Shown here: positions 34,579 to 37,177 of the stretch, piece after piece
Position numbering within the stretch: the first letter of the stretch is position 1
Layout: each line of letters starts with the position of its first letter
Source of the DNA: Eledone cirrhosa
Taxonomy: Eukaryota
Direction of reading: 5' to 3'
Assembly (NCBI GenBank): GCA_964016885.1
Contig: CAXHJY010000971.1
Span: 1-64,000, forward strand
Length of the DNA stretch: 64,000 nt
Notes under the pieces: model-generated
Database searches by the model: none
What the model was told of the DNA's origin: nothing
Seen by the model: only the letters and a program-made list of their open reading frames with translations
Program-made: the position numbers and the translations under genes

Positions 34579-35177
34579 AGTTAAATTCCGTCAAGACCAA
34601 ATAGTACACAGGACACCATTAATAATAACTTCGAATAATAAATTCGATAAAAATGCTCCTATAGAGGAAAAAATTGCTTTCATTACGCGTTACAATGAAT
34701 TCAATTTCATTGCCGCATCACCTTTTCTAAAACTTGTGAAAAAAAAATTAAATCCAACTATTTGGTACCATTTGTTTTATGAACATTGCTTCCATGATAT
34801 ACTCGATTACGACACAGACATAACCGACGACAATATATGTCAAATTACAGAAGAGTACGACAAACTTAAAGACGAGCAACAAAGAAAGCGACCAAACAGA
34901 TGCGAGACTCCTTCTCCTGATAGAAGCGGGGACACACTCAGAATCGACGAAAGTGACTCCGACAAAGAAAACACCAGTACACCAAAATGTACATCAAGAT
35001 GGGGTAAATTCAAAAAAATGATGCAGTCGAACAAAGACGCTCCTTCTCCAGAACCATTCACTCAAGAACTTTAAATTTCTTTATTTTATTTCATTTTCGT
35101 TTCATTATATAACTAGTAATATCCTCGAGATAATAACTTTCTTTCTGTATTACTTGAATAAAACTATATATCTGCAT

Positions 35178-35217
<40 letters not shown>

Positions 35218-35286
35218 TTTGGTTAATAGCAAATGCACTGTCAAAGGCGGCAAACCGGGAGGGAGGGAGGTTAGTAGAATATCACT
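34579..35286 (+). pseudogene. Inverted duplicate of the NS1 3' end and 3'UTR of the parvo-like element
   Basis: Reverse complement of 35296-36002; ORF 34736-35074 matches the NS1 C-terminus apart from the initiator. Confidence 0.95.
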
Positions 35287-35328
35287 AAGCCGATCAGTGA
35301 TATTCTACTAACCTCCCTCCCTCCCGGT
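35254..35328. other. Left terminal hairpin axis: (GGGA)3-containing arms around the 9-nt loop AAGCCGATC (35287-35295)
   Basis: accgggagggagggaggttagtagaatatcact-aagccgatc-agtgatattctactaacctccctccctcccggt. Confidence 0.8.
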
Positions 35329-35364
35329 TTGCCGCCTTTGACAGTGCATTTGCTATTAACCAAA

Positions 35365-35403
<39 letters not shown>

Positions 35404-35418
35404 ATGCAGATATATAGT

Positions 35419-35424
35419 TTTATT
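35419..35424 (-). terminator. Polyadenylation signal of the viral transcript
   Basis: AATAAA ~83 nt after the NS1 stop, followed ~20 nt later by a long U tract (A-run at 35370-35398 on +). Confidence 0.65.
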
Positions 35425-35506
35425 CAAGTAATACAGAAAGAAAGTTATTATCTCGAGGATATTACTAGTTATATAATGAAACGAAAATGAAATAAAATAA
35501 AGAAAT

Positions 35507-37177
35507 TTAAAGTTCTTGAGTGAATGGTTCTGGAGAAGGAGCGTCTTTGTTCGACTGCATCATTTTTTTGAATTTACCCCATCTTGATGTACATTTTGGT
35601 GTACTGGTGTTTTCTTTGTCGGAGTCACTTTCGTCGATTCTGAGTGTGTCCCCGCTTCTATCAGGAGAAGGAGTCTCGCATCTGTTTGGTCGCTTTCTTT
35701 GTTGCTCGTCTTTAAGTTTGTCGTACTCTTCTGTAATTTGACATATATTGTCGTCGGTTATGTCTGTGTCGTAATCGAGTATATCATGGAAGCAATGTTC
35801 ATAAAACAAATGGTACCAAATAGTTGGATTTAATTTTTTTTTCACAAGTTTTAGAAAAGGTGATGCGGCAATGAAATTGAATTCATTGTAACGCGTAATG
35901 AAAGCAATTTTTTCCTCTATAGGAGCATTTTTATCGAATTTATTATTCGAAGTTATTATTAATGGTGTCCTGTGTACTATTTGGTCTTGACGGAATTTAA
36001 CTGATACCTCAGTATCCGTCCCTTCCGCCAATTTCTTAAAAGTTTGTAGAGTTTCAAGAGAGAAGTTAGGTTCTTCTATGAGACCTAGCTCCACATTTAT
36101 TAAATTCTGGAAAGGGAAGCTGCTCGTTCCTTGAATGGTACTGACGTGCGTAAACATGTTAGATATACTACGCGCGATCATTGATTTGCCTGTGTTAGGC
36201 AGGCCGGTGAATACAAGCAAGTTTGTTTTGGCTTTGTATTTATTAAGCAAATCCCAAATACATTTTACAAGTTCTTCTTCGTCTATGTCTTGTGTCATAA
36301 TTATTGATCTAAATATTTTCAACGAAGTTTCGGTATCCATCCATAATTTGGTGTTTTCAAATTGTTTCCAATTCATATTCTCGAACTTCTCTTTGAATGG
36401 CATTATCAGTGTTTTCAGTTTCACGCATTCGAGTACTTTCTTCATGACGCTGTCGTACATGGGATGACTGATAGCGCGCATGAAATTTTCGTTGTTTGCT
36501 CGGTTAAGCCAGTGTGTTTTCATCTCCTGTTCGTTTCGAAATTTTTTTGATGTGAATATATACGTCAGGTAGTTGAATAGAGTTAAAGTCGTACCACTTC
36601 TGCTTTTGAATGTCGGTTCGTCCGTGGCATGTCTTGTTGATGTACTCGTTTTAGGTGTTGGGCTACATTTAGGTACGTATTCTTTCGAGCACCATTCTGC
36701 AAATTCAGAGTTTATAGAACCGAGGCCTTTTATCAGTAAATATCTCGGTGGTTGGCAGAAGTAATTGGCCATGCTGCTAGGGAACTTTACTCTTTGACAC
36801 TCTGGTATGTATCGCGCTAACTGTGTTCCCTTTTTGTACAAGCTTCTCACGTATTTGAGACGTTGGTTTTCTCCTGGTCTTATCTCTGAATTCCATATGA
36901 TATGGAAGTGGTTGAACGCATTCCATTCCTTTTTGTCGCATATTTTTGATTCTTTTGGATGGTAAATTACTGTTGCCTTGTTGATTTGAATAAATTCTAT
37001 TATTTTTCTGTTTGCATTAATTAGAAAGTTATTCTTGTATGCCCCTTCTTTTTCGTCGAAATCGTTTGTTGTTATTTCGTCGTGTTGTATCGGAACTCTA
37101 CCGTTGTCCCAACTGAAGTCCGTTTCAAGTATCCAAGGATAAATGCACATGTACATTTTTATTCCTCTTTTCTGCAA
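35507..37177 (-). CDS. NS1: Parvovirus NS1/Rep-like protein (HUH endonuclease + SF3 helicase); probably exon 2 starting at 37171
   Basis: HUH motif NHFHII, downstream Tyr in ANYFCQP, Walker A GLPNTGKS, Walker B LIEE, motif C IITSNN; the ORF opens on a TTGCAG acceptor rather than an ATG. Confidence 0.92.
   Translation of the reverse strand: MQKRGIKMYMCIYPWILETDFSWDNGRVPIQHDEITTNDFDEKEGAYKNNFLINANRKIIEFIQINKATVIYHPKESKICDKKEWNAFNHFHIIWNSEIRPGENQRLKYVRSLYKKGTQLARYIPECQRVKFPSSMANYFCQPPRYLLIKGLGSINSEFAEWCSKEYVPKCSPTPKTSTSTRHATDEPTFKSRSGTTLTLFNYLTYIFTSKKFRNEQEMKTHWLNRANNENFMRAISHPMYDSVMKKVLECVKLKTLIMPFKEKFENMNWKQFENTKLWMDTETSLKIFRSIIMTQDIDEEELVKCIWDLLNKYKAKTNLLVFTGLPNTGKSMIARSISNMFTHVSTIQGTSSFPFQNLINVELGLIEEPNFSLETLQTFKKLAEGTDTEVSVKFRQDQIVHRTPLIITSNNKFDKNAPIEEKIAFITRYNEFNFIAASPFLKLVKKKLNPTIWYHLFYEHCFHDILDYDTDITDDNICQITEEYDKLKDEQQRKRPNRCETPSPDRSGDTLRIDESDSDKENTSTPKCTSRWGKFKKMMQSNKDAPSPEPFTQEL

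Follow-up and report, generated by a model that had tools for sequence, protein, structure and literature searches.

A fold-back through a terminal hairpin of a putative integrated parvovirus in Eledone cirrhosa

We analysed a 64,000-nt stretch of the Eledone cirrhosa assembly GCA_964016885.1 (contig CAXHJY010000971.1, positions 1 to 64,000; hereafter the window), which contains a long fold-back at one end of what is evidently an integrated parvovirus. Realignment of the arms bore out the geometry given in the initial annotation: the 708 nt at 34579-35286 and the 707 nt at 35296-36002 are reverse complements of each other, aligning without mismatch but with one gap, on either side of a 9-nt asymmetric loop at 35287-35295 (AAGCCGATC). 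The sole difference between the arms was the length of one homopolymer run (T30 vs A29). The fold-back was the longest inverted pair among the pairs listed for the window. The central 150 nt of the palindrome folded with an energy of -89.3 kcal/mol (z = -26), and 0 of 200 shuffled sequences were equally stable. A pattern search of the 3.0-Gb assembly with the 26-nt stem pattern revealed matches in these two arms only. The mirrored arm (34579-35286, + strand) is joined to a host simple repeat at 34578/34579 and holds a second, partial copy of the viral tail: the last 164 NS1 codons, the 3′ untranslated region and the hairpin stem. The other arm (35296-36002, - strand) is part of the full viral unit.

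From the fold-back axis to a hairpin at the promoter end, the unit spans 35291-39231 (~3.94 kb), and its genes are on the - strand. The NS1 main exon (35507-37171) matched PF01057 (E 7.4e-16) and contained the HUH-like motif HFHII at residue 82, Walker A (GLPNTGKS), Walker B (LIEE) and motif C (IITSN). The NS1 structural model had a pLDDT of 77.8. Its fold matches were parvoviral NS1 proteins, over most of their length, and identity was 13-28% among the 50 BFVD matches listed. An N-terminal HUH nuclease is predicted for NS1 from motif and fold. The capsid gene (37211-38779, 522 codons) encodes an N-terminal PLA2 domain (PF08398, E 1.3e-13). Its sequence and fold matches were likewise parvoviral capsids; the capsid model was poor (pLDDT 40.9). 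A TATA-like box at 38982-38988 is the candidate single promoter. At the other end of the unit (35370-35424), an AATAAA signal (35419-35424) is followed in gene sense by a T29 run, and the T/A run beside the hairpin was kept in two older endogenous relatives, L046 and L073.

The capsid gene and the NS1 main exon share a strand, and the capsid gene comes first, both in the window and in each of the 12 older loci (of 15 examined) that contain the two genes. Two reviews (2024-2025) give it as general that NS occupies the left, promoter-side half and VP the right half of the genome (PMC11357303, PMC12298888). The capsid-first layout contradicts this statement of both reviews. To our searches of the literature, which covered main texts so that a prior description may exist, neither a cephalopod parvovirus nor a capsid-first order was returned.

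Of 23 sequencing runs listed, none of them recorded as RNA, contigs or reads of four were compared with the window: X1, possibly the sample behind the assembly; X4; X5, from another organism and another study; and X21, from another sample and study under the same species label. In X4, one contig (depth 18.1) joined 37171 to 38790 with GT-AG sites on the gene strand; this joint was absent in X1, X5 and X21. It corresponds to a 1618-nt intron of the NS1 transcript (37172-38789, - strand) with the whole capsid gene inside and with splice sites kept in older copies. X4 was taken to be RNA because of this splice and the A>G clusters described below. The first coding exon of NS1 (38790-38843, - strand) starts with an ATG, comprises 18 codons (54 nt) and is read in the phase of the main exon. 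It was compared with older copies in 11 alignments (10 of 15 loci): all 11 show an open exon of 54 nt and a pyrimidine-CAG acceptor, and 9 preserve the donor GT. In 9 of the 11, no stop interrupts the frame before a Met, which lies at codon 8 in 7 of these 9 and at codon 6 in the others; the first in-exon ATG of the window is therefore not conserved. In a relative with NS1 only 36% identical, protein P0006 (775 residues, from an 89-kb contig) carries, ahead of NS1, residues 60-119 that correspond to the capsid 3′ end in another frame. In a frame test, 56 of these 60 residues were compatible with P0013, vs at most 26 of 60 for shuffles.

One promoter would likely serve both genes: unspliced RNA would give the capsid, and splicing out of the capsid gene would join the 18-codon exon to the rest of NS1. 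The promoter and the protein products are predictions. Against the splice stands its support by a single contig, with 29 nt on the short side, in X4, for which no run type is recorded. A capsid gene placed in an NS1 intron implies an early/late control different from the usual one. Neither this gene order nor the splice figures in the initial annotation of the fold-back.

The X4 contigs provided further information on transcription. Depth was absent over 34556-35819, although contigs cannot show absence. The long NS1 contig of X4 ended at 35927 with 29 letters off the window path, and the next contig started at 37158; both positions are inversion breakpoints in C14, one of three near-identical sister insertions (C14, C10 and C5) described below. 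Over 37899-38787, X4 differed from the window by 49 A>G, 6 T>C and 3 other changes. Thirty A>G sites were tallied among the rows listed (40 of 60; one allele site omitted), and all were in 37158-39223, the stretch that is doubly oriented in C14. A 5′ G preceded 0 of these 30 sites, vs 34 of 216 background A. A>G change without a 5′ G is a signature of double-stranded RNA editing. The clusters fit A-to-I editing of antisense or double-stranded RNA, and they likely come from inverted viral copies elsewhere than the window locus. A clean C14 origin of the X4 RNA was only partly upheld: the breakpoints agree, but the C14 change at 36389 was absent and the C5 change at 37640 was present.

The fold-back axis evidently lies at a natural viral telomere, i.e., a true terminal hairpin. 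In L046 (69% identical) the hairpin loop was 90 nt from the A run, compared with 83 nt in the window, and this homologous loop agreed with the window loop, taken in the opposite orientation, in 8 of 9 positions. In L073, a 66% relative, the loop was 88 nt from the A run, and both loop orientations were found among its 7 hairpin copies. X5 contained both viral hairpins (window 35253-35325 and 39130-39231) with 1-5 differences, in another organism. Because the hairpins of L046 and L073 are at the same place and X5 holds the same 69-nt hairpin, the axis was taken to be a real telomere, and the earlier assignment of a viral terminal hairpin to it holds. Hairpins at both ends were conserved in older copies. 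As a separate observation, sequencing of organisms B and C (16 runs, 8 studies) contained 8-11% of the words; among these runs, the read comparison was made for X5 (organism B). In L043, L044, L045, L046 and L073, the A run and the polyadenylation region are separated by a small GC-rich stem-loop that the window virus does not have.

The hairpin is downstream of both stop codons and of the AATAAA signal. It is therefore the downstream telomere, right-hand by convention (the promoter end being left). The initial annotation had called it the left telomere, which is true only in window coordinates; its term "tail-to-tail" was correct. Parvoviral terminal palindromes are given as 120-550 nt (PMC12298888). 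At 708 nt, with 164 NS1 codons, the mirrored arm exceeds this range and is therefore a second partial genome copy, not a telomere. A perfect palindrome shows one loop orientation on each strand of its duplex. Flip and flop can therefore be told apart only in reads that extend beyond the 708-nt arm, so the comparison of both orientations in raw reads that had been proposed is uninformative in reads shorter than the arm. Across loci, both orientations were found: L046 vs the window, C10 vs the window at the other end, and both forms within L073.

The promoter-end hairpin (39138-39231) is imperfect (z -2.0, -2.9) and cut short at the host junction. Both viral ends are unbranched, and they are unlike each other. 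An 18-nt G-rich motif common to both ends (35310-35327, - strand; also 35255-35272 and 39138-39155) was found by sequence comparison and is a candidate NS1-binding origin element. The relative L073 (L073:2482-8052, in C2) carries the same simple hairpin at both ends, in 7 hairpin copies. The lineage thus comprises viruses with like ends and viruses with unlike ends.

Searches of the assembly gave at least 21 and at least 69 matches, of which the best candidates were scored. Three loci, C14, C10 and C5, were nearly identical to the window copy (~99.8%; 3-6 differences per 1.5-3.3 kb segment), and the window copy had 4 private differences from all three. C14 contains two large viral segments in opposite orientation, with NS1 ending at codon 409; C10 contains three, with NS1 ending at codons 230 and 433; C5 contains one, with an internal NS1 deletion and a misplaced capsid piece. 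Viral segments were in mixed orientation in these loci. The fold-backs of these loci pass through the promoter-end hairpin and measure 43 nt in C14, ~1.5 kb in C10 and 123 nt in C5; both loop orientations occur. The C14 right-hand junction was visible in X1 contigs. At the left viral junction of C10, 49 host bases (L037:1716-1764) were identical to L038:2756-2804, ~370 bases upstream of the C5 insertion; this identity may reflect either a shared repeat or site-to-site DNA capture. Many older copies were found at 66-73% identity and are, judged by this divergence, earlier waves. Beside a 60% copy, C12 holds two NS1 pieces that are far more diverged (L047:6983-8929; 29-33%), evidently from a further, older lineage at the same site.

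At the window locus, the viral unit is bordered by host repeat on both sides. The left host flank (34306-34578) is a duplicate of 32836-33134, and the right host flank (39247-39684) repeats almost exactly two left-flank stretches taken together, 33320-33382 and 33846-34242. Between unit and right flank is a 15-nt repeat of the last letters of the hairpin (39232-39246, + strand), which resembles a templated insertion. In a nearby copy of one host repeat, the left flank had its match at 33038-33134 and the right flank at 33201-33284; both junctions are therefore at neighbouring places in one host repeat unit. Inverted host repeats occur nearby (33464-33850 and 31827-32511/40870-41558); these are high-copy, 96-99% identical across chromosomes and MITE-like. 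We considered whether the region is locally prone to chimeric fold-backs. This was rejected: the palindrome at 33464-33850 is a high-copy host repeat (1641 candidates; the 40 scored were 98-99% identical), and 40870-41700 is likewise a high-copy host repeat. A further fold-back or inverted host repeat is present at 42102-42573.

Read support was obtained for the loop. In X1, a 69-nt contig spanned it with no differences at depth 6.9, and the adjoining arm contig had depth 13.2. In X5, a 69-nt contig over the same loop had 3 differences and depth 18.5. These depths argue against single chimeric reads as the source of the loop, the circumstance under which the initial annotation would have been withdrawn. 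Two joints were set aside under the reliability line of the read comparison, which requires at least 30 nt on the short side: 35097/35484 in X1 (22 nt, AT-rich) and 35477/37472 in X5 (27 nt). In X21, 20 reads were placed, 7 of them at ≥99%; 18 fitted only in part.

We consider it probable, with moderate confidence, that the fold-back consists of the downstream terminal hairpin plus a partial second genome copy in tail-to-tail arrangement, derived from a piece of a rolling-hairpin multimer that was joined into a host break. Identical arms, an axis at the telomere, viral genes, host repeat on both sides and sister loci were all observed; the order of events is reconstructed. Replication through the hairpin would have produced the palindrome before insertion. 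The multimer would then have broken, and host break repair would have pasted the piece into a simple-repeat tract. End joining would have truncated the second copy to 708 nt and left the 15-nt repeat at the opposite junction. The insertion is probably recent, because only 4-6 differences per 2-3.3 kb separate the near-identical loci. Three features of a rolling-hairpin junction were found: an axis at the telomere, identical arms that extend into unique viral sequence, and both loop orientations across loci. The tail-to-tail form that had been noted is supported, and integration of a replication-type junction is backed by the three sister loci.

Several observations weigh against this origin. 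The second unit stops at 708 nt rather than at full genome length, and a dimer was not seen. The reads covered the loop plus 30-nt stems, leaving the full 708-nt arm and its host junction without read support; this junction adjoins a simple repeat, a sequence type skipped in the read comparison. X1 depth per assembled copy was uneven, at 6.9 for the loop and 5.2, 3.5, 2.8 and 2.6 along the unit (lowest in the capsid gene); this could be due to homozygosity, to copies missing from the assembly or to the presence of some free viral DNA. The window opens an unplaced contig of 98 kb. Two flank searches, which led to repeats and to the window itself, did not find an empty allele or a contig duplicate. 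The head-to-head junction of C10 (L037:5979-6068, arms ~1.5 kb) has a symmetric centre without the asymmetric loop of a plain replication bridge; repair has therefore reshaped at least one junction.

Three other explanations were considered. The dimer part of the earlier proposal, integration of a partial dimer replicative form, is unproven: a broken dimer and a hairpin-primed monomer (~700 nt copied) leave the same sequence, and the locus alone cannot separate them. A single viral strand may thus have been captured, with its 3′ hairpin priming ~700 nt of synthesis, the end switching to host DNA and host replication unfolding the hairpin, with no multimer. Such a capture yields exactly the order host-arm-loop-unit-host, and the 43-nt and 123-nt fold-backs of C14 and C5 and the templated 15-nt repeat resemble priming and template switching in repair. 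However, the several genome-scale segments in C10 and C14 argue that multimeric or multi-copy substrates were available. The incoming strand would also have to be the coding strand, and most parvoviruses are described as packaging mainly the other one (PMC11357303). We regard single-strand capture as unlikely, though a serious competitor.

The palindrome might instead postdate integration of a monomer, through hairpin-primed repair of a break at the telomere in a host fold-back rearrangement. The flanks are indeed rich in duplications and fold-back repeats, but those nearby are high-copy repeats rather than local rearrangements, the mirrored arm ends within viral DNA with no mirrored host DNA, and the flanks are neighbours in one host unit; such a later rearrangement is very unlikely. 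We consider a library or assembly artefact, either a chimeric or amplification palindrome or free hairpin-ended viral DNA stitched to a host contig, to be extremely unlikely. It would accommodate the unplaced contig, the lack of read confirmation for the full arm and left junction, and the higher depth per copy of the loop relative to the rest of the unit. It does not accord with an axis on a conserved telomere, a loop depth well above 1, flanks that are neighbouring parts of one host repeat, the 4 private differences, or the presence of the C14 right junction in X1 contigs. Tail-to-tail joining of a broken multimer therefore remains our preferred explanation, and the fold-back represents a type of structure already known, here in a natural setting that is new.

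Other features of the window were also recorded. A 1259-codon LINE frame (endonuclease, reverse transcriptase and zinc fingers) followed by tandem broken copies occupies 2403-18139; among the 120 matches listed for its protein, none bore a cephalopod name. Frames of 309 codons (44628-45557) and 341 codons (61733-62758) had no convincing Pfam match. Elsewhere in the genome (G000), haemocyanin gene clusters were located at two places, C26:21.9-22.0 Mb and C1:173.7-173.9 Mb; genes of the C1 cluster each gave 7 domain matches in a row, and 7 haemocyanin units is the octopod pattern. The haemocyanin genes mark the host as a mollusc, and the 7 units together with the Octopus vulgaris capsid relative described below make an octopus likely.

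For viruses seen solely as host-genome copies, terminal hairpins can seldom be recovered. In the present case, both telomeres, flip and flop forms and both junction kinds are preserved, so that the route from a replicating parvovirus to an endogenous element becomes readable from sequence. The findings point to a parvovirus lineage in cephalopods. We put forward, as a tentative synthesis that could well prove wrong in part, an unreported and deeply divergent lineage of octopuses and other marine invertebrates, in which the capsid gene lies in an NS1 intron and one splice decision would switch between replication protein and capsid. It would have entered the germ line repeatedly as raw replication intermediates, the latest copies being 99.8% identical, and its inverted inserts would give rise to A-to-I edited double-stranded RNA, a possible inherited source of antiviral RNA. 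Natural inverted viral inserts with edited RNA allow a test, in a mollusc, of whether endogenous viral elements serve as inherited sources of antiviral RNA.

Comparison with known parvoviruses supported the family assignment. The unit length (~3.94 kb) falls within the 3.6-6.2 kb given for the linear genomes of Parvoviridae (PMC10267136), a hairpin is present at both ends, and NS1 has an SF3 helicase domain (PF01057, Walker A/B, motif C). The gene order departs from the usual parvoviral one, both in the window and in the 12 older loci. The genus criterion is given as at least 35-40% identity in NS1 with 80% coverage (PMC11357303); relative to named genera of Densovirinae, Hamaparvovirinae and Parvovirinae, identity was below this level among the 50 BFVD matches listed. 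Outside the PLA2 domain, the best solved-structure capsid match was Penaeus monodon metallodensovirus (PmMDV, Metalloincertoparvovirus; E 5.2e-8 over 57 residues; 2.9e-9), which shares with the window virus a marine invertebrate host and a genome of ~4 kb. PmMDV is described as having no PLA2 and as having 416-nt ITRs (inverted terminal repeats) with T-shaped hairpins (PMC11357303); in contrast, the window virus has PLA2 and two unlike, unbranched ends, so features of Metalloincertoparvovirus are lacking. PmMDV NS1 was not among the 50 fold matches listed.

The top fold matches were three unclassified Parvoviridae in BFVD named after birds (Turdus hortulorum, Motacilla cinerea and Emberiza spodocephala), with E 5e-29 to 3e-25 for NS1 and 3e-15 to 7e-13 for the capsid; identity to these viruses was only 13-20%. 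A bird-swab survey described 17 divergent genomes, monosense or ambisense (PMC9896142), and judging from the names it is the likely source of the three. The closest named capsid relatives were Octopus vulgaris proteins CAI9722210-CAI9722215 (named capsid or hypothetical), with 37% identity over 99% of the capsid. They differ in being annotated as host proteins, and they are likely endogenous because 5 of them form a cluster on a 177-Mb contig. Parvovirus-related sequences of molluscs have been described as unclassified lineages, in a main text that does not include octopus (PMC5013282). A single-protein search of public virus and metagenome contigs revealed no related locus; further searches gave one distant helicase match (27% identity) and, among 598 metagenome candidates, no related locus.

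As integrants, the window copy and its sisters are comparable to three known systems. Integrated AAV (adeno-associated virus) forms head-to-head and tail-to-tail concatemers with truncated ITRs (PMC11324525). AAV vector concatemers in that report resemble the present loci in having both junction types, truncated or rearranged genomes and damaged hairpins at host junctions; they differ in that a natural invertebrate virus is involved here, at four loci of a reference assembly, with an intact loop at the tail-to-tail axis. Transfected densovirus DNA is described as integrating in scrambled form (PMC5978394). The densovirus elements of Aedes Aag2 cells (PMC13711794) and JcDV in Sf9 cells (PMC5978394) are, like the present copies, near-full-length and multi-copy with terminal hairpins, and are transcribed or rearranged. 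Those systems, as described, are cell lines, in which NS precedes VP (Aag2) or the viral genome is ambisense (JcDV in Sf9), whereas the present copies are in an animal assembly, with inverted junctions at both telomeres and with older waves at ~66-73% identity.

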